A program made the translations under genes and the position numbers. A stretch of 12,236 nt of DNA from Gemmatimonadota bacterium (GTDB lineage Bacteria > Gemmatimonadota > Gemmatimonadetes > Gemmatimonadales > GWC2-71-9), in NCBI GenBank assembly GCA_039591655.1, contig JBDHDE010000095.1, positions 1 through 12,236 on the forward strand. The letters run 5' to 3'. Below are positions 1 to 12,236 of this stretch, piece after piece. Below the pieces are notes generated by a model. The model did no database searches and had not been told where the DNA came from. It worked only from the letters and a program-made list of their open reading frames with translations. Every line of letters begins with the position of its first letter. Within the stretch, counting starts at the first letter, position 1.

Positions 1-552
1 ACTCATGTAGGCCGGGGTGCCGATACTGATGCCCGTCTCGGTGAGGTGTTCTCCACCGGCTTCGGAGATGGCCCTGGCAATGCCAAAGTCCGCCACAACG
101 GCTTCACCTGCCGAAAGCAACACGTTCTCCGGCTTGATGTCGCGGTGGATCACATCGCGGCCATGGGCGGAGCTCAGGGCCGCCGCGACTTCGCGAGTAA
201 TCTGCAAGGCATCGTCGAGCGGGAGTTGCCCTTCCCGGGTCATCCGGTCCCGCAACGTCTCGCCCTCGATGTAGGGCATGACGTAGTACAGGAATCCTCC
301 GGCCTCCCCCGAGTCGATGAGCGTGAGAATGTGTGGATGGGTGAGCCCGGCCGCGATCTCGATCTCGCGCAGGAACCGCTCGGGTCCGAGCGCAGCAGCC
401 AGCTCCGGGCGTAGCACCTTGAGGGCTACGGGCCGATGATGCTTGAGGTCCTCGGCGAGATAGACCGTCGCCATCCCACCGCTGCCGATCTCCCGCTCGA
501 TGGCGTAGCGGTCGGCCAGGGCAGATTCGAGGCGTTCGAGGACGTCGTCCAC
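1..552 (-). CDS. Hanks-type serine/threonine protein kinase, N-terminal part (runs off the left edge)
   Basis: Manual translation from GTG at 552: VDDVLERLESALADRYAIEREIGSGGMATVYLAEDLKHHRPVALKVLRPE...HRDIKPENVLL...VADFGIARA...GTPAYMS. It contains the Gly-rich loop, VALK, HRDIKPEN and DFG motifs. Absent from the ORF track because there is no stop in the window. Confidence 0.95.
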   Translation of the reverse strand, partial: MDDVLERLESALADRYAIEREIGSGGMATVYLAEDLKHHRPVALKVLRPELAAALGPERFLREIEIAAGLTHPHILTLIDSGEAGGFLYYVMPYIEGETLRDRMTREGQLPLDDALQITREVAAALSSAHGRDVIHRDIKPENVLLSAGEAVVADFGIARAISEAGGEHLTETGISIGTPAYMS

Positions 553-643: not shown

Positions 644-672
644 ACGCGACCCCGGATAACCCGAAGTCGCGT
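644..672 (-). terminator. Stem-loop downstream of the tRNA-Gln 3' half (terminator-like)
   Basis: Minus strand ACGCGACTTCGG-GTTAT-CCGGGGTCGCGT forms a 12-bp stem with two G-U pairs. It is followed by only a short T run and lies about 15 nt downstream of the tRNA 3' end. Confidence 0.55.
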
Positions 673-687
673 AGTGACTTCCGTCAG

Positions 688-729
688 CTGCCCCGCCTGG
701 GATCGAACCAGGACTCTTCTGATCCAGAG
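688..729 (-). other. 3' half of tRNA-Gln(CTG); attachment-site (att) fragment, not an intact tRNA
   Basis: Minus strand reads CTCTGGA (anticodon loop, CTG) TCAGA AGAGT CCTGG-TTCGATC-CCAGG (T arm) CGGGGCA G (acceptor 3' strand and discriminator). Upstream sequence (CGGCCCCC) cannot supply the 5' anticodon stem, D arm or acceptor 5' strand. Confidence 0.88.
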
Positions 730-889
730 GGGGGCCGCTAAGGGGCTCAAACCCGGCAAAATGTCACACAAAACGCGGGTTCGTGTCGTCCTTTGCCGGG
801 GTTGGGGACAAGATGTCGAGTTGTGACGGCATCTTGCCGGGACTGATGTCGTGCTTTGCCGTGTTACCTCATGAAGACAACAGCGCCCG
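711..889. repeat. R element copy 1 (tRNA-Gln core + arm-like heptamers)
   Basis: 711-869 aligns with 3218-3377: the first 36 bp are identical and the whole is about 85% identical by manual count. 877-889 (ACAACAGCGCCCG) is identical to 10224-10236. Heptamers at 825 (inverted), 835, 847, 857. Confidence 0.92.
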
Positions 890-904
890 CCCGTCGTGCT
901 GCGG

Positions 905-2992
905 CTACTCGAAGCTCGTACGGGATGAGAGGTGTGCCTCGATCTCCTCGCGCGTGCGCCAGACCGGCCGCAGCTCCTTGCGGGCGAGGAGGTGCAATTG
1001 ATCGGTGAAGTGGGGAGAGCCGGGCTGGCTGGAGTTACCGTAGCCGAGGACCGCCATCGCCCGCACTGGGTCCGAGAACTCAATGGCTGCCACGTAGGTG
1101 TCCCCGCCTGTCACCACGAGGTGGCCATCTTCCGCTTCGGCGAACCAGGCCATCCGGAAGACTCCCCATGGGTCGTGGAAGCCATTGGCTGGAAGATCGA
1201 CGTCGCCGCGGCGGAAGCGATGAACTTCGCCCCATGGGACGTCCAGCGCACCGTATCGCGCCTCGACTCTGTGGGCGGCCGTCTCCAGGGCGGCAGCCGC
1301 GGCGGTGGGGTCGGCGATGCCGTTTGGAGTGTCCAGGGGCGACTCGGCATCCCAGGGCACCGCGAAGAACCTCGACCCGACCAATCTCCAGAGTTCCTGG
1401 GCGAAGGTCTGGAAAAGGACGGCACCACGGCTCTCCGCGTCGGTCTTTCGGTCCCACGCCTGCAGAACATCGGCGGCCCGCTGTGCGAGGGGACTTCCGT
1501 GCGTGCGGGCAGCGGCTATCACTTCGTCGAGGATGTGGTCCGCCAGCTGGACCCAAGTGGAATGCTTGTAGGCGACGAGTTCCTCGAATGTGATAGATTC
1601 GTCCTCCAGCAGCATGAGCGCGGAGCGCTTGGCTCGGAAGTGCATTGAGCGCGGCGCCAGGTAATCGGGGTAGGTGTCCGGATCGAGGGCGCGCGGGAAG
1701 GTCGTCGTCCAGGGTGGGTCGTTGGCGTTCTGGAGCCAGCCGCTCTCGGGGTCCAGGACGCGCGGCAAGTCAGCGTAGGGATGAACTTCAGTCCAAAGCG
1801 TCGCAGAGGTGTCGCCGGGTACCGCCCTTGGCCAATCCCACTCTCCTTCGGGTCGCATCGGCGTCAGCCCGCCAAAATGATGCAGGATGTGTCCCTCGCG
1901 ATCCGCGTAGATCACGGTGAACGTGGGGAGCTGCATGCGCTGTAAAACCGCTTCGAACTCGGCGAGGCTCGTCGAGCGGCCCATGTCCCACCAAGCCTCG
2001 AGGGTGCCGGGCCGGTCGAGCCCCACCATTCGCAAGGCCAGCGCCGCACCGCGGCTTTCGGCGACTACCGGTCCGTGCACGGAGTGACGAACCAGCAGTG
2101 TATCCTCGCGAAGACTCCCATCAGCCGTCTTCACCTTGATGGTGTGCTCCTGCAATTCAAACTCGCGCACCCCGCCGTTCCAGCGATAGCCGCCGTCGAC
2201 GAGCTCGAGGGCGTAGAAGTCAGCGCCGTCGTGGGAGTTATTTGTGTGGGTCCAGCCCAAATCGTCGTTGAAGGCGATCACGAGCGTTGGGAGCCCCACC
2301 GCCGTCGCGCCATACACATCGACCCCAGAGCCTACGAGCTGCGCTTCGAAAAGCAGGTCGTGGTCCACCCAGAACAGGTGTGGGTTCGCCAGCAGCATGG
2401 CGTTGCCGCTGGCCGAGCGGGAGGGCGCGATGGCCCAGGCGTTGGAGCCGGCGGCCAACTGGCGCTGCGCTCCCTGGACGACGTGAGGGTTGCTGACGAT
2501 GCTGAAGAGTACAGCACGCTGGACGTGGGCCAGGACATCCGTGGCGTTGACCGGTAGGACAACCTCAAACTCGTCGCTGATTGCGTCGGGTTCCTCCGTC
2601 ACGTAGGCGTTGATTCCTTCCGCGAATGCATCCAAGTAACCTCGGAACTGCGGGGTCTGCGCCTCGTACCACTCCTGCGCCCGGGCCGGCACGCCCATAG
2701 TGAGCAGGTAGCGGTCCATCTGCAGGTTGGTCCAGCCGAGATGTTCGCGGAATTCTTCACCCCAGTACTCGGCGCTGCGCGCCCGGGCCTCACCGTAGAG
2801 CCTGAGTATCAGATCGCCGTGGCTCCGCGCTTGCGCCCATCCGAAAGCGAAGAAGACATCTTCTTTGGTCTTTCCGTAGACATGGGGAATCCCCCACACG
2901 TCCCAGAGGATCTCGGTCCGTTCGGGGCCGGTCCCGTGGCAGGCACCGAGCAGTACCGCCGCGCTCAAGGCACCGGCGATGAGGGAGCGCAT
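905..2992 (-). CDS. Penicillin acylase family (Ntn-hydrolase, peptidase S45) acylase, predicted lipoprotein; GL-7-ACA/AHL-acylase-like
   Basis: Start at ATG 2992 gives MRSLIAGALSAAVLLGAC (lipobox). Motifs: WDVWGIPHVYG, FGWAQARSHG, catalytic beta-chain start GSNAWAIAPSRSASGNAMLLANPHL, WTHTNN, QNANDPPW, YGNSSQPGSPHFTDQ. Confidence 0.93.
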   Translation of the reverse strand: MRSLIAGALSAAVLLGACHGTGPERTEILWDVWGIPHVYGKTKEDVFFAFGWAQARSHGDLILRLYGEARARSAEYWGEEFREHLGWTNLQMDRYLLTMGVPARAQEWYEAQTPQFRGYLDAFAEGINAYVTEEPDAISDEFEVVLPVNATDVLAHVQRAVLFSIVSNPHVVQGAQRQLAAGSNAWAIAPSRSASGNAMLLANPHLFWVDHDLLFEAQLVGSGVDVYGATAVGLPTLVIAFNDDLGWTHTNNSHDGADFYALELVDGGYRWNGGVREFELQEHTIKVKTADGSLREDTLLVRHSVHGPVVAESRGAALALRMVGLDRPGTLEAWWDMGRSTSLAEFEAVLQRMQLPTFTVIYADREGHILHHFGGLTPMRPEGEWDWPRAVPGDTSATLWTEVHPYADLPRVLDPESGWLQNANDPPWTTTFPRALDPDTYPDYLAPRSMHFRAKRSALMLLEDESITFEELVAYKHSTWVQLADHILDEVIAAARTHGSPLAQRAADVLQAWDRKTDAESRGAVLFQTFAQELWRLVGSRFFAVPWDAESPLDTPNGIADPTAAAAALETAAHRVEARYGALDVPWGEVHRFRRGDVDLPANGFHDPWGVFRMAWFAEAEDGHLVVTGGDTYVAAIEFSDPVRAMAVLGYGNSSQPGSPHFTDQLHLLARKELRPVWRTREEIEAHLSSRTSFE

Positions 2993-3073
2993 TCGATAGT
3001 GCACTGTCGCTCTCCGCAGGGTGGTTCGTCTCGACAGCAAGTTCCCTCGCCTTCGTATCGCCGGATAGCACAT

Positions 3074-3213
3074 CGGTCACGTTGTCGGTGGCCGTCCTAC
3101 GCGGGCGTCGCTCTGGCAGCGGGGCATTCGGGCCATCGGCGGTTCGACGGATTGGGACGAACCTTGTCCCGATGTCAGTGGTGAACAAGGGTCATTCTCA
3201 CTCGGGATTCGGC
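3074..3213. repeat. L element copy 1 (upstream of the acylase)
   Basis: Colinear with 11140-11283. Shared blocks: CGGTCACGT..GTCGGTGG, CGTCC, GGGCG(C)TCGCTCTGGC, an identical 22-mer GGCCATCGGCGGTTCGACGGAT (3131-3152 / 11204-11225) and TCGGGATTCGGC (3202-3213 / 11272-11283). Confidence 0.85.
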
Positions 3214-3217
3214 GGGT

Positions 3218-3377
3218 GGACTCTTCTGATCCAGAGGGGGGCCGCTAAGGGGCCGAAACCCGGCAGAATGTCACTTCAAACGCGAGTTCGTGTCGTCCGG
3301 TGCCGGGGTTGGAGGCCAAAATGTCGGATTATGACGACATCTTGTCGTGTCAGATGTCGTGATTTGTCGTGTTACCT
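3218..3377. repeat. R element copy 2 (19-bp tRNA-Gln core + arm-like heptamers)
   Basis: GGACTCTTCTGATCCAGAG (3218-3236) is the anticodon loop to start of T stem of the tRNA-Gln fragment. Heptamers GACGACA (inverted, 3333) and TGTCGTG at 3343, 3355, 3365. Confidence 0.92.
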
Positions 3378-3558
3378 AGCAGGAGTGTTGGCTGCGTCTT
3401 GCTGCGGTCACAGAAGCTGCGGGAGCGCCATCGGCGTCGGCCGAACGGCGGTCCGACGTTCTGGGCGCTCGTGCGAGCAGGCCGAACCACGAGCCGCTCG
3501 TCGAGCCTCACGTGCCCAGTGCGCGGCCAGGTGGTGGCGCGCCTACCGCCCCGGCGCG

Positions 3559-5265
3559 TCAGTCGTAGACGACGCCGAACCGCTCCCGCTGCTCGGGGCT
3601 CCCCACGGCGATGAGCGTCGAGCCCCGTTCGAGCCGCTGGTCGGCCGGCAGGTTGGTGATGATCCGCGCGTCCTGCTGGACGCCGATCACGCTCAGCCCG
3701 GTGCGGGCGCCGATCGCCGCCTCGGCAAGCGTCTTGTCGGCGAGGGACGGCGGAAGCGGCACGTAGAACAGATCGACGCCCTCGCCCAGCATGACGAGCT
3801 CGCGCTGCTGCACGATCGAGAACACCGTCTGCACCCCGAAGGAGGCGTAGCTCAGGACGAAGTCGGCGCCGGCGCGCTGGATGGCCTCGACGTTGCGCTC
3901 GTGGGTGACCCGGGTGAGGATGCGCGCCTCGGGATTGAGGCGCCGGCAGTAGACCGTCAGGTAGATGTTCATCGCGTCGTCGTGCGTCGTGAGCAGGATG
4001 GACGGCGTCTCGACGATCCCCGCCTCATCCAGTACCTGCCGGTCGGCGGCATCACCCAGGAAGAGCCGGTCGGGAATGCCATGGATCTTGCGCTTGAGCT
4101 CCTCCTTGCGCTCTACGATGTGGACCGGGACCTCCCTCCGTTTGAGGGCCCGAGCGGCCGCCCGGCCCACCTTACCACCGCCGATGATGAGCACCGGATT
4201 CGGATTGGCGTCGTAGATCACGAGCACCTCGTTCAGCTCCTCGATGTGCTCCGGCGCACCGATCGCGACCGGAATGCTGAGGCGCGACAGCTCGAGGTTC
4301 GGCTGCGCCGGTTGGAACCGCCCGCGCTCCCACACGCCGACAATCGTGACCCCGGTGAACTCCCGCAGCTGGGTCTCCCGGATGGTACGGCCCTGGAGCG
4401 GCGTGTCGTGCACCGGGAACTCGACGAGGAGGAGATCGTGGAACTTCCCGACCACGTTCGAATGGGCCGAGCCCGCGCTCACCCGGTTGGCGAGATGCTC
4501 GCCGAGCCGTTCCTTGAGGGGCAGTACATGCGTGGCCCCACTCAGCTCCAGGACATCGATCGATTCCTCCACCTCGACCAGCGCCGCGACGGGGACGGAC
4601 CCTGACAGCTCGCGAACCGTGAGGACAATGTTGGAGTTGACCGTGTCCGACGCATTGGCCAGGACCAAGCGGGCCCGCGCCGCAGCGGCGGACCGGTAGG
4701 TCTCGACGGCGTCGATCTCGCCGGTCACGGCCGGCAGGCCCGCATCGCGCATGCGCAATGCCACGTCGGGGTCGGGCTCGATCACGTAGGCGGGCACGCC
4801 GGCCAGGGCGAGTCGGCGCTGCAGCCCCAGCGCGATGGGATCGTTGGCGCAGATCAGCACGTGACCCTCGACCTCCGCCGGTACCGACCGGAGCGCCCGG
4901 AGGCGACCCCGCCTCTGCTGCTCGAGCCACGGGACGTACACGAATCGGATGAAGAGGAACGGGAGGATAATGAGGAGGAGCACGACCCCGGTCACCAGCA
5001 CAACACTGCTGAACACGCGGCCCAGGTCCGTCTCGAACGTGATGTCACCGAAGCCCAGCGTGCTCATCACGGTGAGGGCCCAGTAGATCCCGGTGAACCA
5101 GGAGTGGTCTTGACCCTCCCACGCCATGATCACGTGGAACAGCCAGCCGTAGAAGAGGACCACAACGATGAGCAGGGCGAGGTATCTGACGAACGGCGCG
5201 AGCCGCCCTCGCAGCCCGCCACCCCCCGCCACCAGCGCCGCCAGGTAGGAGCCGACGGTCTTCAT
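3559..5265 (-). CDS. Potassium channel protein: 2-TM pore domain + two tandem TrkA-N/TrkA-C (RCK) modules
   Basis: 568 aa. Pore helix and filter GIYWALTVMSTLGFGDITF flanked by two hydrophobic helices. The second RCK has the Rossmann motif IIGGGKVGRAAA; TrkA-C motifs GVTIVGVWERG and GLSVIGVQQD. Confidence 0.93.
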   Translation of the reverse strand: MKTVGSYLAALVAGGGGLRGRLAPFVRYLALLIVVVLFYGWLFHVIMAWEGQDHSWFTGIYWALTVMSTLGFGDITFETDLGRVFSSVVLVTGVVLLLIILPFLFIRFVYVPWLEQQRRGRLRALRSVPAEVEGHVLICANDPIALGLQRRLALAGVPAYVIEPDPDVALRMRDAGLPAVTGEIDAVETYRSAAAARARLVLANASDTVNSNIVLTVRELSGSVPVAALVEVEESIDVLELSGATHVLPLKERLGEHLANRVSAGSAHSNVVGKFHDLLLVEFPVHDTPLQGRTIRETQLREFTGVTIVGVWERGRFQPAQPNLELSRLSIPVAIGAPEHIEELNEVLVIYDANPNPVLIIGGGKVGRAAARALKRREVPVHIVERKEELKRKIHGIPDRLFLGDAADRQVLDEAGIVETPSILLTTHDDAMNIYLTVYCRRLNPEARILTRVTHERNVEAIQRAGADFVLSYASFGVQTVFSIVQQRELVMLGEGVDLFYVPLPPSLADKTLAEAAIGARTGLSVIGVQQDARIITNLPADQRLERGSTLIAVGSPEQRERFGVVYD

Positions 5266-5356
5266 GCAGAGATGATAATACTAGATCCGCGCGAAACAGT
5301 GGCGCGGCGGAGGCGGCACCGTCGCCGGGCTAAGTGACCTGCCCACCAAGGAGAAC

Positions 5357-5383
5357 GCCAGACGACCTAAGCGGTTGTCTGGC
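5357..5383 (-). terminator. Stem-loop downstream of the tRNA-Pro fragment
   Basis: GCCAGACGACC-TAAGC-GGTTGTCTGGC inverted repeat (11-bp arms, one imperfect position), about 14 nt past the tRNA 3' end and followed by a pyrimidine-rich tail on the minus strand. Confidence 0.5.
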
Positions 5384-5397
5384 ACTTGGTTACTGAA

Positions 5398-5433
5398 TCG
5401 GGACGGCGGGATTTGACCCCGCGACCCCCTGAC
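5398..5433 (-). other. 3' fragment of a tRNA-Pro gene (att-like remnant, T-loop mutated)
   Basis: Minus strand GTCAG GGGGTC GCGGG-GTCAAAT-CCCGC CGTCCCG A. The T stem is perfect, the T loop has GTC instead of TTC, and the acceptor 3' strand ...CCG-A is typical of tRNA-Pro (5' CGG). Anticodon and 5' half are absent. Confidence 0.72.
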
Positions 5434-5483
5434 TGCGATTCGGCTGCCACGCTTGATGGATTCGGGAGCTCGAAGGCCATGTC

Positions 5484-5637
5484 CTTGACACAATCTTGAC
5501 ACTCGCGAGCCGGGCAGGAGGCTGTACTGCGACGTCGGCATCGAGGGACAGCCCAGGCGCTGTTGCGACACCCCGTGAGCGGGCGAGGGTCGTGTCCCGT
5601 TAGGGGACACACCTTCCGGCACAAGATCGGGCACACC
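5484..5637. repeat. Periodic short repeats resembling integrase arm-type sites
   Basis: CTTGACAC at 5484 and 5495 (11-bp period). GACACACC/GGCACAAG/GGCACACC at 5606, 5618, 5630 (12-bp period). Inverted repeat GTGTCCC-GTTAG-GGGACAC at 5592-5610. Confidence 0.55.
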
Positions 5638-5850
5638 CTGCGGGTCACGGACTTCTTCATGGATCTGATGACCGGCGATCTGAGCAACCAGCAAGCGGTG
5701 CAGCGGGTGCACGATACGGAAGGGCCGTCGATCTCGTGGCTGGTTGGGCACCTCCTCAATGGACGCTGCGAAATGTTGAAGCTGCTGGACTCAAGTGCCG
5801 AAAACCCATTCGCCGCGTAATTCGACCGCGCGAGGCCGGCCGATAGCCCC
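5635..5850 (+). pseudogene. DinB/YfiT-like family protein remnant
   Basis: TLRVTDFFMDLMTGDLSNQQAVQRVHDTEGPSISWLVGHLLNGRCEMLKLLDSSAENPFAA*F. The 'DLS..QA......GPSI.W.VGHL' pattern resembles the first two DinB helices with the conserved His. No clear start; TAA at 5818-5820; the C-terminal half is missing. Confidence 0.55.
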
Positions 5851-5910
5851 ATGTGGTCGCGCAGCCCGGAAGCGCTGAGACAAGATCGCGGCTAGTGCCT
5901 ACCGAGGACG

Positions 5911-5949
5911 CATTAGCGGTTCATTAGGATCCTCTAAGACTTTCACTAG
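5911..5949. promoter_or_regulatory. Four hexamer direct repeats with an exact 11-bp period (candidate winged-helix regulator boxes)
   Basis: CATTAG 5911, CATTAG 5922, TCTAAG 5933, CACTAG 5944, in a locally AT-rich intergenic stretch. Confidence 0.45.
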
Positions 5950-6075
5950 AAACGGCTCTGCCTATTGCAGGCTGCAAAGGACGCTCAGTATCGTGCCAAC
6001 ACGAATCCTGTACCTATCGACCGGAGGTACTCCCCCAGTGCGCCAGTCCGCATGGCCCGCCACCGGGCCTCCGCG

Positions 6076-6091
6076 TGGCACACGCTTTGAT
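6076..6091 (+). promoter_or_regulatory. Candidate sigma54 (-24/-12) promoter of the activator gene
   Basis: TGGCAC-ACGCT-TTGAT versus consensus TGGCAC-N5-TTGCW: correct spacing, one mismatch at the conserved -12 C, about 60 nt upstream of ATG 6149. Confidence 0.4.
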
Positions 6092-6148
6092 AAAGAGGAG
6101 TGCTTGCCCCGGAGAACGGTACCGGGGCTTCTTCTACGAGGGGATGGC

Positions 6149-7415
6149 ATGGAGATCGGGCGACGCCGGGAGCGGCTCGCACCCACGGTTTTGGTCCTGG
6201 ACCAGATCGGAGGCTTCGAGTCGTTCGCGCGAGACGTGCTCGACCCGGCGGGCTACAGGGTGCTGTGGGAGGAGAGCCCGCGCGCGGCGATCGCGGCGCT
6301 CGAGCGGGACGAGGTCGACGCGGTCCTCGTGGACGTGTGCGTTCCGCACCAGGGCCTTTTCGACGGGGCCGCTTCGGTGATCCGCTCGCGGACGAAGGCC
6401 CGCAAGGTGGTGGTGACGGGGTGTCCCCTCATGGACGCCGCGGCCCGCGTCCTCTATCCGCGGGCGGATGGCTTCGTCCAGAAGCCTTGTACGCCGCAGG
6501 AGCTGCGCAGCCAAGTCGCCGGCGGGCCCGCTCCTCAGTCCTCGCCCGAGGAGCCGGGGCTCCCGTTTCACCGCATAGTCGGCACCTCGCCGGGCATCGC
6601 ACGAGTGATCGCACAGATCCACGAGGCGGCGCCCACGGATTCGACGATCCTGATCAATGGAGAGACGGGGACCGGAAAGGAGCTCGTGGCGGCGGCCATC
6701 CACGAATGCTCCCCTCGCAGGGACCGGCCCTACGTCGTGGTGGATACGGTGGCGCTCTCCGAGACCCTGCTGGAGTCCGAGCTGTTCGGCCACACGAAGG
6801 GCGCGTTCACGGGAGCCGTCAGCGGCAAGCCCGGTCTGTTCGAGGCCGCCGACGGGGGGACGATCTTCCTCGACGAGGTCGGTGAGGTACCACCCGCCGT
6901 ACAGCACCGGCTGCTCCGGGCACTGCAGGAGCGGCAGGTGCGCCGCGTCGGGGCCGTGCAACCGAGCAAGGTCGACGTCCGCATCATCGCGGCGACGCAG
7001 TGGGACCTGGAGGAGGATCCCGCCCCTGCGGGAGCGGCGCGAGGACATCCCGCTCCTGGTAGAGCATGCGCTGGCGCCTGCGGGTCCCAAGGGTGGACGA
7101 GCGAGCCGCTGTACCGACCTGGCGCTGCAAATGCTGGAGAGCTACGACTGGCCCGGGAACGTGCGGGAGCTCCTGGCCGTGTTGGAGCGGGCGCAGATCG
7201 GCGCGGCAGGGAGTCGGCTCTCCACGCGTGACCTCCCGGGGCGGGTCCGTGTCGCCTGGAGAGAGGCGATGCTCTCGGGCGGGGAGCCGCGGGAGAAGAC
7301 CGCGGTCATGCAGGTGCTGGAAGAAACCGAAGGGCACCGGGGCAAGGCCGCCGAGCTGTTGGGAGTCAGTCGCACGACGCTGTGGCGCTGGCTGGTGCGC
7401 CACGGGCTCCGATGA
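6149..7415 (+). pseudogene. NtrC/AtoC-family sigma54-dependent response regulator (REC + AAA+ + Fis HTH) with internal deletion and frameshift near 7016
   Basis: Frame 1 has the REC domain (VLVDVCVP, VVVTG, FVQKP), Walker A GETGTGKE, ESELFGHTKGAFTGA, GGTIFLDEVGE and RIIAATQWDLEE. It then jumps to another frame at 7017: IPPLRERREDIPLLVEH...YDWPGNVREL...AAELLGVSRTTLWR. The conserved ~20-aa G.FR.DL.YRL segment is missing. Confidence 0.9.
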
Positions 7416-7464
7416 TCGTGGAGCGCAGTGGTAAAGCGGCACCGGCCGACGGGCGGGGCCGCGG

Positions 7465-7917
7465 TCATGCAGCTTCCGTGCGGGAGCGATCCGTTCCGAT
7501 CACCGTCACCGCGGCGGCCATGAGCACCAGGTCCTTCAACAAGAACTCCCCGGCCAGGCTGAGGAGCGGGAAGCCGCCTTCACCGTAGCTCACCGCCGGC
7601 GCGATCAAGAAGATCAGTAGCGTGCCGGCAAACAGGCCGACGAGCACGATGCCCACGAAGCGCAATCCAATGCCGCCGAAGAGCAAGATCGCGCAGATGA
7701 GCTCGACGACACCCAGGACGTAGACGAATGCCGGGAAGGCGAGGAAGCTCAGCGACGCGTCGAGCAGGTCCACCACCGGGCTCGGGTCGACGAACTTGAG
7801 CGCGCCGATCCATAGCAGCACGATACCGAGGGCGACCCGCAACAACGTCGTACCCCACCTGCCTGCCAACTCCACATACCCGTTCACAGTCTCCCCCTCG
7901 AGTAGATCGTCCCTCAC
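7465..7917 (-). CDS. DoxX-family / YkgB(RclC)-like membrane protein
   Basis: 150 aa with four hydrophobic segments; LLRVALGIVLLWIGALKF, LGVVEL and GEFLLKDLVL motifs. The GTG start overlaps the upstream TGA (GTGA coupling). Confidence 0.85.
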   Translation of the reverse strand: MRDDLLEGETVNGYVELAGRWGTTLLRVALGIVLLWIGALKFVDPSPVVDLLDASLSFLAFPAFVYVLGVVELICAILLFGGIGLRFVGIVLVGLFAGTLLIFLIAPAVSYGEGGFPLLSLAGEFLLKDLVLMAAAVTVIGTDRSRTEAA

Positions 7918-8426
7918 TCCTGCTTCCTGGCGTGGTGGATCAGCCCGAGCACGTCCTTGGCGACCAACCGGCCCACCGCGCCGCTGGAGTAGACGGCCAG
8001 CACCGTCCGGCCCTTGGGGCGCAGTACGAACCCCGTCGCCTGGACGAACGCATCGTCCTTCCCCAGGTACGCCCCGACGCTCTTCTCGATGTCGAGCGGG
8101 TCCAACCCGTACCCCACCTCAAACTCTATACCGAGCTCCCTCACCGTGGTCCGCGCCTCCGCCTCCGGATCGGCGCTGAGCGCGATCACCGAGACGTCAG
8201 CCGCGCGGAACCGGTAGAGGTTCTCCTGGAAGTCCCGCAGCTGCTGCTTGCAGTAGTAGCACCAGTTCCCCCGATAGAACAGGATCACGGCCCAGCGCCC
8301 GTCCACGTCGCCCGGCAGCACGATCTTCCCCCCTCTCACGCGGTGGGCTCGTACCACCGGGAAGCGCTCGCCCACATCGATGCGGACGGCATGGCCCCGT
8401 ACCGGGGCGTCACCGGTTGCGGTCAT
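7914..8426 (-). CDS. AhpC/TSA-family peroxiredoxin-like (thioredoxin-fold) protein
   Basis: 170 aa; VGERFP, ILFYRGNWCYYCKQQL (CxxC), VIALSAD, ATGFVLRPKG...YSSGAVGR. Confidence 0.88.
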   Translation of the reverse strand: MTATGDAPVRGHAVRIDVGERFPVVRAHRVRGGKIVLPGDVDGRWAVILFYRGNWCYYCKQQLRDFQENLYRFRAADVSVIALSADPEAEARTTVRELGIEFEVGYGLDPLDIEKSVGAYLGKDDAFVQATGFVLRPKGRTVLAVYSSGAVGRLVAKDVLGLIHHARKQE

Positions 8427-8637
8427 CGGTCGTCCACTCTGCTTCGGTGATGCTCATCTCGCCATCTCCTCTCGGCGCCGCGGCGAGCGTGCGCGCAGCG
8501 CGTCGTTCCTGGGTCGGGCAGGCCGGGTAGTGGCCGTGCACCTCGCGGTACACAGCCAACATGGCGTTCCAACGCGGTGCGTGGGCCATGGGATGCGCAT
8601 CGCGCTCAGCACAGTAGGGGCAGCTGGACTCAGCCAT
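8410..8637 (-). CDS. Small hypothetical protein with CxxC and His/Cys cluster (possible metal-binding)
   Basis: 75 aa MAESSCPYCAERDAHPMAH...HGHYPACP. GGAG lies 8 nt upstream of the ATG; co-oriented between two real genes; overlaps the next start by 17 nt. Confidence 0.4.
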   Translation of the reverse strand: MAESSCPYCAERDAHPMAHAPRWNAMLAVYREVHGHYPACPTQERRAARTLAAAPRGDGEMSITEAEWTTDDRNR

Positions 8638-8724
8638 CGGCGGACTCCACCCGCCGCGGTGCCGCGGCCGGTGGAGTCGTCCCGCCTGTGAGAGACACGG
8701 TCTGCTGCGAGGCGTAGTCCCTTA

Positions 8725-9861
8725 TTACCGGGCCACCATGCCGTTGGCGCCGCCCGGCAGCGCTCCGAAGTCGCCGATGTGCGTGAGCCCGCCCTGCGCC
8801 TCGGCGCGGAACGCGCCCACGGTGCCACCGCCGTTGCGCACGTACAGGAAGCGCCCGCCCGGTGTGAACGCCGCATCGAGGGGTGCGGCGCCGGTGCCCG
8901 CCACCGCCTCCAGCAGGGTCAGCGTGGCGCCGGGGCCAATCGCCAGGCTGGAGATGGTGCCGCTCGCCGTGTTGGTGGTGTAGGCGAACTTGCCGTTCTG
9001 GCTGATGGCGATCCAGCACGCCGCCAACTGGGTGGTGGCCACCTGGCCGGAGATCACCGTCAGGTTGCCGGCTCGATCCAGCCGGTAGGAGGAGGCGGTG
9101 CTCAGGTTCGGCGGGCCGCCCTGGGCCTCGGACACGACCAGGTCGCCACGCTGGTTGAAGCTGAACCCGAACGGCGTATTGCCGGCCGACGCTTGCGCGT
9201 TGGGACCGCTTGCTACCCCGTCGGATCCGACCGTGTATGTGGTGATCGTGTTGGTCGCCTTCTCGGTCACCACGAGCACGCGCCCGTCGGGAGTGAAGCC
9301 GATCTGCGCGGGGCCGACCGCGGCAGCGCTGAGCGGCTGGACCGATCCCGGGATCGCCGTCGGCGCGCCGTCCGCGCCGAGGCGGAAGCCGGCGATGTTG
9401 CCGGGGGGGCCGGCGTTGAGCACGTAGAGCAGGTCGCCGTGCACGGTGAGGCTGATGGGCCGCGTGCCGCCCGACGCGACGGGCGCGCCGATGAGCGCGA
9501 GCCCCGTGCGGGTGACGCGGAACGCCGAGACGTCGTTACTGCCGGCGTTCACCACGTAGAGGCGGCGGTGATCCTCGGTGATGATCACGGAGCCCTGGTT
9601 GCCCAGGCCGCCGCCGGTGCCGGTCCCGCCGGTCGCGTAGGTGCCGGCAGGCGTGGGCCGGCCGTCGGCCGAGCGATCGAACACGATGACGCCGTTACCC
9701 CCGGGGGCGTTGCTCATCAGGTAAACGGCACCGGGGCCGCTCAGCCCCGCCGCCGATGCCGTGAGACCGAGGTCCGTCCCGGGCTCTACCGGCTCTCCGG
9801 AACAGGCCGCGGCGGTCAGCCCTGCGAGTGCCACGACCCACAAGCGACGATTCGTTTGCAT
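8725..9861 (-). CDS. Lactonase-family 7-bladed beta-propeller lipoprotein (6-phosphogluconolactonase-like fold)
   Basis: 378 aa; lipobox LTAAAC; blade repeats LYVVNAGSNDVSAF, LYVLNAG, FTPDGRVLVVTEK, ISQNGKFAYTTN, FTPGGRFLYVRN. AGGAG RBS upstream. Confidence 0.9.
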   Translation of the reverse strand: MQTNRRLWVVALAGLTAAACSGEPVEPGTDLGLTASAAGLSGPGAVYLMSNAPGGNGVIVFDRSADGRPTPAGTYATGGTGTGGGLGNQGSVIITEDHRRLYVVNAGSNDVSAFRVTRTGLALIGAPVASGGTRPISLTVHGDLLYVLNAGPPGNIAGFRLGADGAPTAIPGSVQPLSAAAVGPAQIGFTPDGRVLVVTEKATNTITTYTVGSDGVASGPNAQASAGNTPFGFSFNQRGDLVVSEAQGGPPNLSTASSYRLDRAGNLTVISGQVATTQLAACWIAISQNGKFAYTTNTASGTISSLAIGPGATLTLLEAVAGTGAAPLDAAFTPGGRFLYVRNGGGTVGAFRAEAQGGLTHIGDFGALPGGANGMVAR

Positions 9862-9920
9862 CTGCGCATCTCCTTGAAAGAGAAGAGATGGTGCCGCGGC
9901 CGGCGCCGGCGCTCCGCGTG

Positions 9921-10108
9921 AGAGCGCCTCGTGCCAAGCCGCGGTGGCCTTGGCCTAAGGCAACGACCGTGCCGCGATGCCGCTGTTCTTGGGAAGCCGT
10001 CGAAGTGGTTGTCGAACAGGCGATTAGCGACTTGGCGCCGGGCGCGGCCCCCGGGTTCGCACGTTTCATCGCAACCGGAGAGCATTCACCGAGCGTGTGC
10101 ATGAAACA
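9921..10108 (-). promoter_or_regulatory. Possible degenerate sigma54 promoter and upstream activator sites for the 9861->7465 operon
   Basis: Minus strand TTGGCACGAGGCGCTCT (9937-9921) has a perfect -24 box but the GC is 2 nt too close. An inverted pair GTTTCAT (10063-10069) / ATGAAAC (10101-10107) lies 130-170 nt upstream. Confidence 0.3.
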
Positions 10109-10132
10109 ACGCCGGCCGGCGGTGACCGCAGG

Positions 10133-10289
10133 CGTCCCTTGCCGGGTGCAGAGGTCAAAGTGCCTGTGTCACACGACAAGATGTCGTGTCAAGTGTCGTG
10201 ATATGTCGTGTTGGCTCACGGACACAACAGCGCCCGGCGCGGAACCGGGCAGCGAGAAGCCCCGAACGCCGATGTGACGCTCGGGGCTT
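10133..10289. repeat. R element copy 3 (no tRNA core; arm heptamers + two hairpins)
   Basis: CGTCCCTTGCCGGG matches copies 1 and 2. CACGACA (inverted, 10172) and TGTCGTG at 10182, 10194, 10204 have the same spacing as copies 1 and 2. Tail hairpins at 10232-10250 and 10257-10289. Confidence 0.88.
10257..10289 (-). terminator. Terminator-like hairpin downstream of the lipoprotein gene (part of the R tail)
   Basis: Minus strand AAGCCCCGAGCGTC-ACATC-GGCGTTCGGGGCTT: a 14-bp stem with G-U pairs that folds fully only on the minus strand, 23 nt after the stop at 10313. Confidence 0.55.
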
Positions 10290-10312
10290 GCCAGTCCGCG
10301 GCCTCGCTGGTC

Positions 10313-11086
10313 CTATCCGCCCAAGCTGTCGATCACGGCCTGCGTCATGTCGATGAGCGTCTGTGCTGCGGACGGCGTGATGCGCCTGCCGGCCCGCGCC
10401 TGCACACTACGGATGAACGCTTCCAGTGTGCGCTGAGCAGTGGTGTTCTGGTAGTCGCGGATGTCCGCCTCCGCATTCGACAAGAATCGCTGCATGTTCT
10501 CGGCAGTGGAGCGGTTGTCGATGGACCCATCCGTGAGGAACTCGTCCACCGTGCTGGCGATGGCGGCCAATCTCTCGACTGTTGGGGTTGCCGCCTCGCT
10601 GAATCCGGCGAGGTCCACGACCCCCGTGGAATCAGAGAAGAGGTCTTGGATGCGGAGCCGTAGTTGCATGCCTCCCGAGAGAAGGTTATACCGGGGCACC
10701 GAATATGTCTTGGTGACACTTCGAGTCGTGCCGGCGGCCACTATTGAGTCGGAGGGTCTGGTTAAGGACCCGTACGGCGTCCCATCTCCGTAGAACCGAA
10801 AGGTCCCTGCAGCGACGGCACCATCCAGATCGGCTTGGCTGAAAACGGTGATGATCACGTCCAGGAACATCTTGCCGGGGGGCGCGGACACGGTAAGCCC
10901 TCCCTCCACCGGGAAGGATTTCCGCGCCACAACACCGGTGACGGTGAAGGCCGTGCTCCCGAGAGTCAGCGTGTCGCCGATGCTCGCATAGGCCGGTGTG
11001 TCGCCGATGCTCGCATCGGCCGGCGGAGGTCCCTCGCCGCACCCGATCAGGAGAGCGAGAGCCAGACCAAGAAGTGCTGTACGCAT
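10313..11086 (-). CDS. Hypothetical lipoprotein: Ig-like (DUF4352-like) domain + C-terminal FIMAH-like helical domain
   Basis: ATG 11086 with AGGGGG RBS; MRTALLGLALALLIGC lipobox; beta-rich middle (IGDTLTLGSTAFTVTGV, APPGKMFLDVIITV). The C-terminus ...GSIDNRSTAENMQRFL...LEAFIRSVQARAGRRITPSAAQTLIDMTQAVI resembles FIMAH. Confidence 0.8.
   Translation of the reverse strand: MRTALLGLALALLIGCGEGPPPADASIGDTPAYASIGDTLTLGSTAFTVTGVVARKSFPVEGGLTVSAPPGKMFLDVIITVFSQADLDGAVAAGTFRFYGDGTPYGSLTRPSDSIVAAGTTRSVTKTYSVPRYNLLSGGMQLRLRIQDLFSDSTGVVDLAGFSEAATPTVERLAAIASTVDEFLTDGSIDNRSTAENMQRFLSNAEADIRDYQNTTAQRTLEAFIRSVQARAGRRITPSAAQTLIDMTQAVIDSLGG
10971..11024. repeat. 27-bp in-frame tandem duplication
   Basis: GTGTCGCCGATGCTCGCATAGGCCGGT / GTGTCGCCGATGCTCGCATCGGCCGGC (25/27 identical), encoding PADASIGDT-PAYASIGDT. 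Confidence 0.9.
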
Positions 11087-11139
11087 ACGGTCCCCCTGCG
11101 ACCTCAGGAGGGTTTGCTCACTTCCCGTCGGTGGTCCTA

Positions 11140-11283
11140 CGGTCACGTCCGTCGGTGGGGCGTCCAAGTGGAGGGCGCTCGCTCTGGCGAGGCGGGCCGT
11201 CGAGGCCATCGGCGGTTCGACGGATACCGCCAAAGTGCCGCCACGGGCAGGCGACATAAGGTCGAATCGGGTCGGGATTCGGC
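11140..11283. repeat. L element copy 2 (upstream of the lipoprotein)
   Basis: Colinear with 3074-3213, including the identical 22-mer and 12-mer blocks. Confidence 0.85.
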
Positions 11284-11290
11284 CTGCAAG

Positions 11291-11357
11291 CACCAGCGCC
11301 CGGCACGGGGCCGGGCAGTGGAGAGAAGCCGCGAACGCCGCTCTGACGCTCGGGGTT
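11291..11357. repeat. R element tail copy 4 (double hairpin only)
   Basis: CAGCGCCCGGCACGGGGCCGGGCAGTGGAGAGAAGCCGCGAACGCCGCTCTGACGCTCGGGG aligns with 10228-10286; both hairpins are retained. Confidence 0.85.
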
Positions 11358-11388
11358 ACTCAGGACTATCGACGCCGCATGTTGCGCT

Positions 11389-12236
11389 CTACCTGCCGCT
11401 CAGCATACCCAGGTCGATCATGCCCCCAGACGCTGTCCAGAGGAAGGCGCGCCGCTCGCCAGCGGCAGTCGTGCTGGTACCGACAACCTGGCCCAGCTCA
11501 TTGATGGCGCTGGCGTCACTCAGCGTGCCACCCAGTGTACCGAGGTCGGCCATGCCGCCAGCTGCTGTCCAGAGGAATGCGTGGAGGTCGCCCGACGCCG
11601 TCCTGCTCCTCCCGACCACCTGGCCGGCCTCGTTAATGCCGGATGCAAAGCTCGACGCGCCTCCCAGCGTGCCAAGATCCGTCGTCGCTCCCCCGACTGC
11701 CCACACGCAGGCGTGGGGTCCCGACGCGGACTCCGCCCATCCAGCGATCTGTCCGAGATCATTCATGTCCAAGGCCTCACTGAACTCGCCACCCAGTGTG
11801 CCAAGGTCTGTCATACCGCCTTGAGGTGTCCAGAGGAAGGCGTGAGACTCGCCCGAAGCGGTCTCGCTCACGCCCACGACCTCACCAGTGCCGTTGACCC
11901 CGTATGCACGGCTCCGAGTACCGCCAAGCGTACCCAGGTCCGTCATGCCTCCGCCTGCGGTCCAGACGAACGCGTGGAGCTTGCCCGCAGTGGTCCGGGC
12001 CGACCCCACCACCCGACCGCCGTAATTGATATCCTCCGCCGAACTGGACCTGCCCCCCAGCGTTCCCAGGTCAGTCATGCCGGCAGCAGCGGTCCAGATG
12101 AAGGCGTGGACGACGGTGCCGGTCTCGCTCGATCCCACAACCTGGCCCCTCGCGTTGATGCCCGACGCCACGTTCCACGACATTCCGCCCAGCGAGGGCA
12201 GGGCGGTCATCCCCGCTGCGGACGTCCATAGGAAGG
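11389..12236 (-). CDS. HAF-repeat extracellular protein (C-terminal part; 5' end outside the window)
   Basis: Six ~44-aa repeats of the form A.GIN..GQVVG.S.T.SG..HAF.WT..GGM.DLGTLGG. The frame stays open to the right edge (…FLWTSAAGMT…). Confidence 0.93.
   Translation of the reverse strand, partial: FLWTSAAGMTALPSLGGMSWNVASGINARGQVVGSSETGTVVHAFIWTAAAGMTDLGTLGGRSSSAEDINYGGRVVGSARTTAGKLHAFVWTAGGGMTDLGTLGGTRSRAYGVNGTGEVVGVSETASGESHAFLWTPQGGMTDLGTLGGEFSEALDMNDLGQIAGWAESASGPHACVWAVGGATTDLGTLGGASSFASGINEAGQVVGRSRTASGDLHAFLWTAAGGMADLGTLGGTLSDASAINELGQVVGTSTTAAGERRAFLWTASGGMIDLGMLSGR

Follow-up and report, generated by a model that had tools for sequence, protein, structure and literature searches.

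Small blocks bounded by tRNA-Gln(CTG) island ends, and a predicted promoter-leader module, on a contig of an uncultured Gemmatimonadota bacterium

Cis-mobilizable elements (CIMEs) of Streptococcus (ICESt1/ICESt3) have lost their integration genes and kept attL and attR, and the accessible part of the source describes them in tandem stacks at the 3′ end of a tRNA gene, with chimeric junctions and mobilization by a related integrase (PMC5704250). In the available portion of a preprint on Prochlorococcus, islands built by tycheposons grow as newcomers shift older elements inward, and a tycheposon is recognised by membership of a separate integrase clade and by an inward-facing integrase with an optional replication module (bioRxiv 10.1101/2020.12.28.424599). 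The promoter-early stem-loop (PeSL) module of T4-type phages combines a stop codon, a G/C stem-loop, a sigma-70-like promoter, a Shine-Dalgarno sequence and a start codon; as the accessible sections of two papers report, PeSLs are concentrated in variable regions before unrelated genes and are shuffled by recombination inside the module (PMC2839356, PMC4122927), a plasticity that the 2010 paper, in its accessible text, stated was not known from cellular organisms (PMC2839356). Here we describe an entire contig of an uncultured Gemmatimonadota bacterium (JBDHDE010000095.1, assembly GCA_039591655.1), hereafter the window (12,236 nt), in which genes lie among repeated non-coding elements termed R and L.

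We consider it probable (about 0.65) that the window belongs to a stack in which copies of one end of a tRNA-Gln(CTG) island bound small gene blocks, that this stack was formed by repeated integration with a tyrosine integrase borrowed from a larger island and then worn by deletion, and that L travels with the cargo and enables gene swaps by homologous recombination. The host genome is designated G000 and the window its contig C95; genomes of relatives are given as Gnnn with contigs as :Cn, and DNA loci retrieved from them as L with three digits. Genes were predicted with our own hexamer caller, which misplaces some starts, and all element counts come from regions retrieved for holding R or L and not from a random sample. 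The six non-coding elements that a sequence-only reading of the window had proposed as L and R copies are all present where it had placed them, as sequence comparison confirmed, and these and the associated hairpins are as follows.

644..672, minus strand: hairpin Q, which follows the tRNA 3′ half and resembles a terminator (fold z -3.3)
688..729, minus strand: tRNA-Gln(CTG) 3′ half, tRNA positions 32-72, recurrent core at 715-729
730..869, plus strand: R1 arm, with TGTCG[TG]-type 7-mers that are predicted arm-type integrase sites
877..890, minus strand: remnant of hairpin T1, from sequence comparison
3049..3209, minus strand: L1, predicted -35 at 3188-3183 and -10 at 3165-3160 with a 17-bp spacer, leader from 3152, 3′ part degenerate
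3218..3377, plus strand: R2, core at 3222-3236 and full arm; tRNA 3′ half eroded, with L1 in that place
5357..5432, minus strand: second attachment remnant, hairpin 5357-5383 and tRNA-Pro(GGG) 3′ fragment 5398-5432
10133..10212, plus strand: R3, only the distal half of the arm, without tRNA core
10224..10286, minus strand: hairpins T1 and T2, where the lipoprotein gene is predicted to terminate (fold z -2.8 for the gene strand against -1.2 for the opposite strand)
11112..11279, minus strand: L2, predicted -35 at 11259-11254 (off consensus) and -10 at 11237-11232, leader from 11225, ribosome-binding site (RBS)
11291..11355, minus strand: T1 and T2, formerly read as an R tail, without att core; with L2 a predicted terminator-promoter-leader module

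Read in its own direction, R consists of the 3′ half of tRNA-Gln(CTG), the anticodon core and an arm of ~140 bp with repeated TGTCG[TG]-type 7-mers, and it is the attachment end, specifically the distal one, of a conventional family of tRNA-Gln(CTG) islands. Positions 688-729 are identical at 41/41 positions to positions 32-72 of the tRNA-Gln(CTG) of one congener. Hairpins related to Q precede tRNA 3′ halves in the congeners and follow the integrase stop codon in G002:C30 and G034, and the true partner end of R is hairpin Q with the tRNA 3′ half (window 644-729). Because the other island end consists of a hairpin and a tRNA 3′ half, R1 together with 644-729 is a tandem junction between units. 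Identity is 138/160 between R1 and R2 (BLASTN E 1e-48), 59/80 between R2 and R3, 106/149 between L1 and L2 and 56/68 between the two tails. The tRNA core is found in R1 and R2; R3 and the supposed R tail lack it. Hairpin 644-672 had been overlooked, as had the 6.8-kb interval from R2 to R3 and the tRNA-Pro(GGG) remnant, whose tRNA part is 97% identical to positions 40-74 of that tRNA, whose hairpin has a fold z of -4.45, and which has a related copy at G000:C54.

The profile search suggested by the sequence-only reading recovered 12 R matches (eight on C61) and 11 L matches in G000, which together with the R1/R2 E value rules out chance similarity, and R arm matches were found in 10/10 congeners. 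Retrieved congener DNA held 82 R profile matches, three of which are the tRNA gene itself; orientation is constant within every contig, and 11 contigs hold 3-8 copies. The core is retained in 65/82 matches, with fixed left ends and ragged right ends, and the tRNA 3′ end is still present at 21/62 arm-bearing cores. These copies support the proposal of stacking at the tRNA-Gln anticodon core with arm-type repeats. The median length of the 46 R-to-R intervals is 3.2 kb; a single gene lies in 17 of them and an L in 19, and 91/131 genes are antisense to R. A single gene together with L occurs in only five, and within the window the acylase gene alone fits the L-gene-R arrangement. Records with the exact R pattern are mostly titled Gemmatimonadota. 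Seven of 14 non-congener genome-scan records were checked for the elements alone, and five of those, having no R profile match, were discarded as chance; the viral contigs searched lacked both the L and R patterns.

Candidate sources of the integrase occur at tRNA-Gln in relatives, as had been anticipated. G034 carries a 22-kb island whose tyrosine integrase is intact and points towards the tRNA, and whose distal end is an arm homologous to R; the short repeats of this distal end recur behind the integrase stop codon, and thus at both island ends. A 14-kb tRNA-Gln island in G102 has a deleted integrase, and intact integrase genes adjoin the tRNA in G002:C30, G137 and G057. An integrase lies within 1.5 kb at 5/30 tRNA-Gln loci, at full length in two. 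Thirteen units extend from one core to the next and have a tRNA 3′ half on their right side, seven of them directly at the tRNA, and five of these seven (0.84, 2.07, 2.15, 3.4 and 3.7 kb) have no integrase match; the remaining two are a 4.8-kb unit with an integrase fragment and the G034 island. A further two-ended, integrase-less unit of 1.2 kb at L200 brings to six those at intact or interrupted tRNA-Gln genes, in agreement with the earlier proposal of small units devoid of integrase, though no unit inside the window has both ends intact. In G003 the K+ channel gene of the window (93% identical) forms a full unit of 2.07 kb at tRNA-Gln with both ends, but in G000 and G006 its neighbours and ends differ. 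Other modules of gene size likewise reappear among congeners, 80-94% identical but differing in neighbours and ends; a single island with invariant content is therefore refuted, and the expected variation of content between relatives is borne out. A separate observation concerns L133 (G137:C349), where the integrase is 62% identical to that of G002:C30 and is preceded by a primase-like ORF, labelled by eye; this tRNA-Gln island is a possible satellite-type helper.

L is predicted to be a sigma-70-family-type promoter followed by a conserved leader of ~110 nt and an RBS, and not the partner att arm of R that it had been thought to be. On the gene strand an upstream box is followed by TTG, a spacer conserved in length and free in sequence, nAnnTT, the highly conserved leader and the RBS. 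The arrangement TTG-N3, 16-17 bp, nAnnnT, which would mark a sigma-70-family promoter, is found in 59/66 copies with a low-information spacer. L faces the 5′ end of a gene in 76/79 copies, and signal-peptide-like genes, scored by a crude hydrophobicity test, make up 45/66 of the genes downstream as compared with 626/2594 genome-wide. Congener genomes hold 2-36 copies, and both L and T1 occur in islands at tRNA-Leu(TAA), -Gln(TTG), -Pro, -Ala(TGC), -Cys and tmRNA, which also speaks against an att arm. The leader without the promoter part scores in 21/100 other family genomes, two of these being congeners; in other family genomes 12/26 leaders precede lipoprotein-like genes, and several loci are near tRNAs. 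In G060, G094 and G111, which belong to other genera, it recurs 14-19 times each (L211-L222, L253-L266) without the promoter of the genus, and carries a GGCC-loop-GGCC hairpin and repeated GACG blocks. The leader is a candidate new cis-regulatory motif. Distances between the conserved L blocks vary. As to RNA structure, Rfam gave no match at E<=1 for 10 L loci, and RNAalifold returned four pairs without covariation. Covariation of two hand-drawn structures was not above shuffles in 38 congener copies, and a proposed fourth hairpin was below chance (8/61 against 12.2 shuffled); the GGCC-loop-GGCC hairpin of the other genera, with its variable loop and one compensated pair, may hint at structure.

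Hairpins T1 and T2 adjoin many L copies and resemble terminators in position, T1 facing a stop codon in 63/76 cases and T2 folding better on the gene strand in 17/24. Among 99 L copies with a complete outer end, 16 without a recognisable end box were excluded and 83 distinct ends were classified: 35 join T1, 18 the tRNA-Gln core and 30 other sequence, so that T1 is joined about twice as often as the core. The proximity of L to the core that had been pointed out is nevertheless beyond chance, at 10/65 cores against 0.3-0.6 expected. Spacings at the 18 distinct L-core junctions cluster at 12-13 and 19-22 bp, and their linkers often keep remnants of the tRNA T-arm, while an uneroded form, L-hairpin-tRNA half, is present at G010:C15. 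These remnants and the uneroded form allow erosion to account for the L-core junction without L being an arm; the junctions may conceivably still recombine.

Genes and promoters appear to be decoupled through L. The 52 copies examined head 43 distinct 5′ coding families, and in six homologous gene pairs (78-94% identical) the promoter halves are at background in three (0.55-0.59, background median 0.59), intermediate in two and retained in one (0.81). Conversely, where two promoters are at least 80% alike, the genes behind them are unrelated in 24/29 pairs. This pattern would fit crossovers inside the T1-L module.

The following course of events would account for these observations. Full islands, whose anatomy is seen in the relatives and whose activity we infer, carry the integrase, hairpin and tRNA 3′ half beside the tRNA, and their distal end consists of core plus arm (R). 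Integrase-free units that measure 0.8-4 kb and retain both ends, several of them directly at the tRNA, form the next anatomical stage, and their mobility is likewise something we infer. A newly arriving unit would insert either into the core of the tRNA or into an existing junction and shift older units inward, and deletions would then wear down the tRNA halves and arms until the T1 and L of the cargo meet att remnants; erosion to these outermost signals of the cargo would thus produce the L-core and arm-T1 junctions. The T1-L module of ~230 bp, spread in 2-36 copies per genome over several tRNA islands, would supply each gene with its own start and stop signals and offer homologous stretches through which genes could be exchanged, in the manner of the PeSLs of T4-type phages.

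Several points weigh against this explanation, beginning with the retrieval of the analysed regions for the very elements counted. R copies are only ~77% alike within genomes, the same as between genomes, and most copies must therefore be old; R is also found within a tRNA-Gln(TTG) island and at unanchored sites. In G000 there is no intact island-type integrase, only a fragment, and neither tRNA-Gln(CTG) nor the neighbouring tRNA-Ala(CGC) was found in the 95% complete assembly, so the search beyond the window for both tRNA-Gln(CTG) and integrase did not yield what had been expected. The contig-overlap check in G000 found no contig connecting the window to a tRNA, and the anchored status of the array therefore derives from the relatives. 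No integrase was found whose own end bears the arm repeats of the genus R, those of G034 differing in sequence. T1 folding has no strand bias (35 against 47 of 91), the decoupling test comprises six homologous pairs, one of which retains its promoter, and shared descent with later gene replacement equally yields the count of 24/29. No excision, circle or transcript was observed. The search for circular junctions, made on contigs, gave none distinguishable from other repeat copies; joints between R1 and R2 in four contig sets have sides of <30 bases that match other R copies and were not taken as excision, and in an empty/filled comparison (G007:C4 against G004:C1) the flanks are too diverged to align informatively.

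A more ambitious explanation, which we entertain tentatively, is a two-layer gene-collecting system of a free-living bacterium in which a PeSL-like module would pre-format unrelated, mostly exported proteins as self-contained cassettes and shuffle them from island to island via mini-circles, with integrase-borrowing mini-islands, including L-core-R circles, stacking at tRNAs; if true, this would do the job of an integron without encoding any recombinase itself, and the phylum would have a new cis-regulatory element in the leader. The model of the sequence-only reading, in which dedicated single-gene cassettes have L and R as their two att arms and an integrase acting in trans recombines L-core-R as a functional attP, could explain the excess and clustered spacings of the L-core junctions, the clean R-gene-L/R units in the window and at L155, L202 and L204, an L-core-tRNA 5′ piece at G002:C19 that resembles an attL formed with L, and repeated GTCGG motifs in L that loosely resemble those of the arm. 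However, it appears unlikely given that 65/83 classified L ends are not at a core, that L occurs in islands at six other tRNA/tmRNA sites and the leader alone in other genera, that L has promoter spacing and an RBS with a block spacing that varies, unlike that of arm sites, that integrase-bearing islands terminate in the hairpin and tRNA half rather than in L, and that 27/46 R-to-R intervals have no L. We find it similarly doubtful that decay alone acted, all units having arrived as large autonomous islands that shrank in place and never moved as small ones, with L and T1 as ordinary regulatory sequence without a shuffling role. Ragged arms, integrase fragments beside several tRNAs, low R identity, and the frameshifted regulator and gene fragment of the window are what this would predict, and it is the CIME route described in the accessible part of PMC5704250. 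Yet the tRNA-proximal, and hence youngest, unit is small and integrase-free in 5/7 cases and at L200, gene-sized modules of 80-94% identity have different neighbours and ends in different congeners, and promoter halves are decoupled from genes; the stronger form, one island of invariant content, is refuted as described above.

Two further explanations fare worse. Repeats between co-oriented single genes could recall a decayed integron array, that is, a cluster of attC sites lacking integron-integrases (CALIN), with L or R as a non-canonical attC, and IntI-like integrases do exist in the genus, including a 5′-truncated gene at G000:C97; these integrases are putatively IntI-like, by sequence motifs. 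This is very improbable because the RYYYAAC...GTTRRRY pattern was found in 0/63 L, 1/37 R and 0/98 T1 regions, at or below shuffled sequence, and relaxed attC boxes in 5/63 L against 7.4 shuffled. Moreover, L has no end-to-end hairpin, whereas the attC-like site by one IntI-like gene (L247) has 22 long-range pairs, although a second control (L245) has none; eight IntI-like loci scanned over 2-3.5 kb each held no L or R, and none of the six attC-like matches in G000 is near L, T1 or R. The earlier statement that the system is not built on attC is thereby upheld. As separate observations, the truncated gene at G000:C97:6170-6721 is without an attC-like site and unlinked to L or R, and fuller IntI-like copies with attC-like sites nearby are present at G002:C20 and G009:C433. 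Still less probable is that L, T1 and R are repeats like miniature inverted-repeat transposable elements (MITEs) or repetitive extragenic palindromic (REP) sequences that insert independently of genes. T1 does occur at some loci without L or R, and a few L copies are inverted or doubled, but orientation relative to genes is strict, R is fixed on the tRNA core, L and R have no terminal inverted repeats, and no Y1 transposase, IS110 transposase or large serine recombinase was found in G000.

The genes of the window were assigned mainly by Pfam and NCBIfam and are listed below.

1..552, minus strand: Ser/Thr kinase (Pfam Pkinase), truncated where the contig ends; it is cargo of the unit to the left of R1
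905..3004, minus strand: acylase of the penicillin-amidase family with a signal-peptide-like start; the sole clean R-gene-L unit in the window
3559..5265, minus strand: K+ channel (Ion_trans_2 with TrkA_N/C, Pfam)
5575..5820, plus strand: fragment of 81 aa that matches the beginning of an island gene of G010 (172 aa) at 73% identity
6149..9861, mixed orientation: multigene block with a sigma-54 response regulator, DoxX/DUF417, AhpC/TSA and a lactonase-like propeller (Pfam)
10313..11086, minus strand: predicted lipoprotein with a lipoprotein-like N-terminus and a C-terminal FIMAH domain
11389..12236, minus strand: HAF-repeat protein (TIGR02913, E 1e-80), truncated at the contig end

The database searches bore out the earlier labels of acylase, K+ channel, lipoprotein (FIMAH) and HAF-repeat protein, and the distances from stop codons to R and from start codons to L are as had been claimed. 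Since the kinase at 1..552 is cargo of a neighbouring unit, the array starts before position 688. The claim that all genes are co-oriented holds for the four named genes but not for those hidden between R2 and R3, where six genes were called in both orientations, 4/6 of them antisense to R, with no L. The block at 6149..9861 has identical gene order in G006:C100 at 81-89%; its sigma-54 response regulator (6149-7415) is broken across two frames near 7020-7040 and is a single 450-aa call in G006. A sigma-54-like site lies at ~9960-9974, upstream of the lactonase-like gene. Pfam and NCBIfam searches with the 81-aa fragment (5575..5820) gave no match, ORF/Pfam and tRNA searches of the window found no integrase, as had been stated, and no intact tRNA, and Rfam had no match to the window at gathering level. 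The sequencing runs that bear the window are marine or other sediment metagenomes, with no RNA run among those listed. Contig pieces from independent sediment runs span the R2-channel, R3-lipoprotein-L2 and L2-tail-HAF junctions, and the bridging of these three junctions in independent runs counts against mis-assembly.

Several observations lie outside the argument above. Ser/Thr kinases very often begin just left of the R core, in most R contigs of the congeners, eight of them behind a shared flank of ~40 bp (Z), and a stand-alone GIY-YIG protein of ~110-130 aa recurs in the arrays (L016:15140-15469), with homologues in G000:C69, G002, G005 and G010. At L083:183-312 (G003:C204) a full-length tRNA-Gln(CTG) has a hairpin-forming T-loop insertion of ~50 nt, which ~15 displaced 3′ halves of this tRNA in congeners also carry; the insertion may abolish tRNA function or may reflect a chimeric assembly. 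Gln is encoded mainly by CAG in G000 (26502, against 3340 CAA). At L107 (G019:C73) a tRNA-Gln(CTG) 5′ half has its 3′ half swapped at the core for unrelated sequence, possibly an insertion that failed to restore the tRNA. A second stack in G000, at the 5′ end of tRNA-Leu(TAG) (C5:2391-16509 and C9:6651-6732), has three repeats of the upstream region with the first 44-56 bases of the tRNA along the path C5-C107-C9, and similar 5′-end fragments exist for tRNA-Ser(GGA). Placement of the window inside this tRNA-Leu(TAG) island was dropped, as the overlap path runs C5-C107-C9 and C95 shares merely a kinase repeat with it.

If the preferred explanation is correct, an uncultured lineage renews exported proteins and kinases via kb-scale units at tRNA genes, units that would escape integrase-based island finders. 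The core-plus-arm site and the integrase family of the relatives provide a concrete candidate att/integrase pair, and the T1-L module makes it testable whether shuffling of the PeSL type known from T4-type phages also operates in cellular genomes. Were decay alone to act, the locus would be an unusually clear example of known tRNA-island accretion.

Searches of the openly accessible literature, supplements not covered, returned no description of these R/L repeats, nor was a cellular analogue of the phage PeSL terminator-promoter module found described there. The earlier judgement that this is not a described system is nonetheless too strong for the R layer, as accretion bounded by tRNA snippets is described in the accessible portions of PMC7771536, PMC5704250 and bioRxiv 10.1101/2020.12.28.424599. 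By its testable features the R layer belongs to tRNA-island accretion, on an unusually small scale. With the CIMEs, as the accessible text presents them (PMC5704250), it shares both att ends without an integrase and tandem stacking at the tRNA 3′ end; the present units span 0.8-4 kb, with as many as roughly a dozen in one genome, and apart from a candidate satellite with a primase-like ORF (G137) the helpers seen are plain integrase islands. No conjugative helper turned up, and no search for one was made in this lineage. The R layer works like the additive flexible genomic islands of Alteromonas (PMC5217437) and Ca. Actinomarinales (PMC7771536), but those are described, in the available parts of these papers, with tRNA repeats only, whereas here an arm of ~140 bp stays with the core and the cargo is formatted by a shared, predicted promoter-terminator module. 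Tycheposon-built islands likewise have partial tRNAs and fragments of integrase genes scattered through them, according to the accessible part of the preprint (bioRxiv 10.1101/2020.12.28.424599); in contrast to tycheposons as defined there, the present units have no integrase, and the helper integrase points towards the tRNA. Integrons and CALINs are alike in their co-oriented single genes between repeats and variable order, and unlike in that the present locus has no attC boxes or hairpin and no linked IntI, but its own predicted cargo promoter and tRNA-derived sites. The T1-L layer would work like PeSLs but is chromosomal, and so is not a member. Compared with the module as the accessible sections of PMC2839356 and PMC4122927 describe it, T1-L is about twice as long, has a conserved leader of ~110 nt and a bias towards exported proteins, and no homology was seen. 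In sequence pattern, however, it shares with PeSLs a stem-loop, sigma-70-like promoter and Shine-Dalgarno sequence between stop and start codons, and its repetition ahead of unrelated genes in variable, tRNA-bounded islands (43 families in 52 copies).

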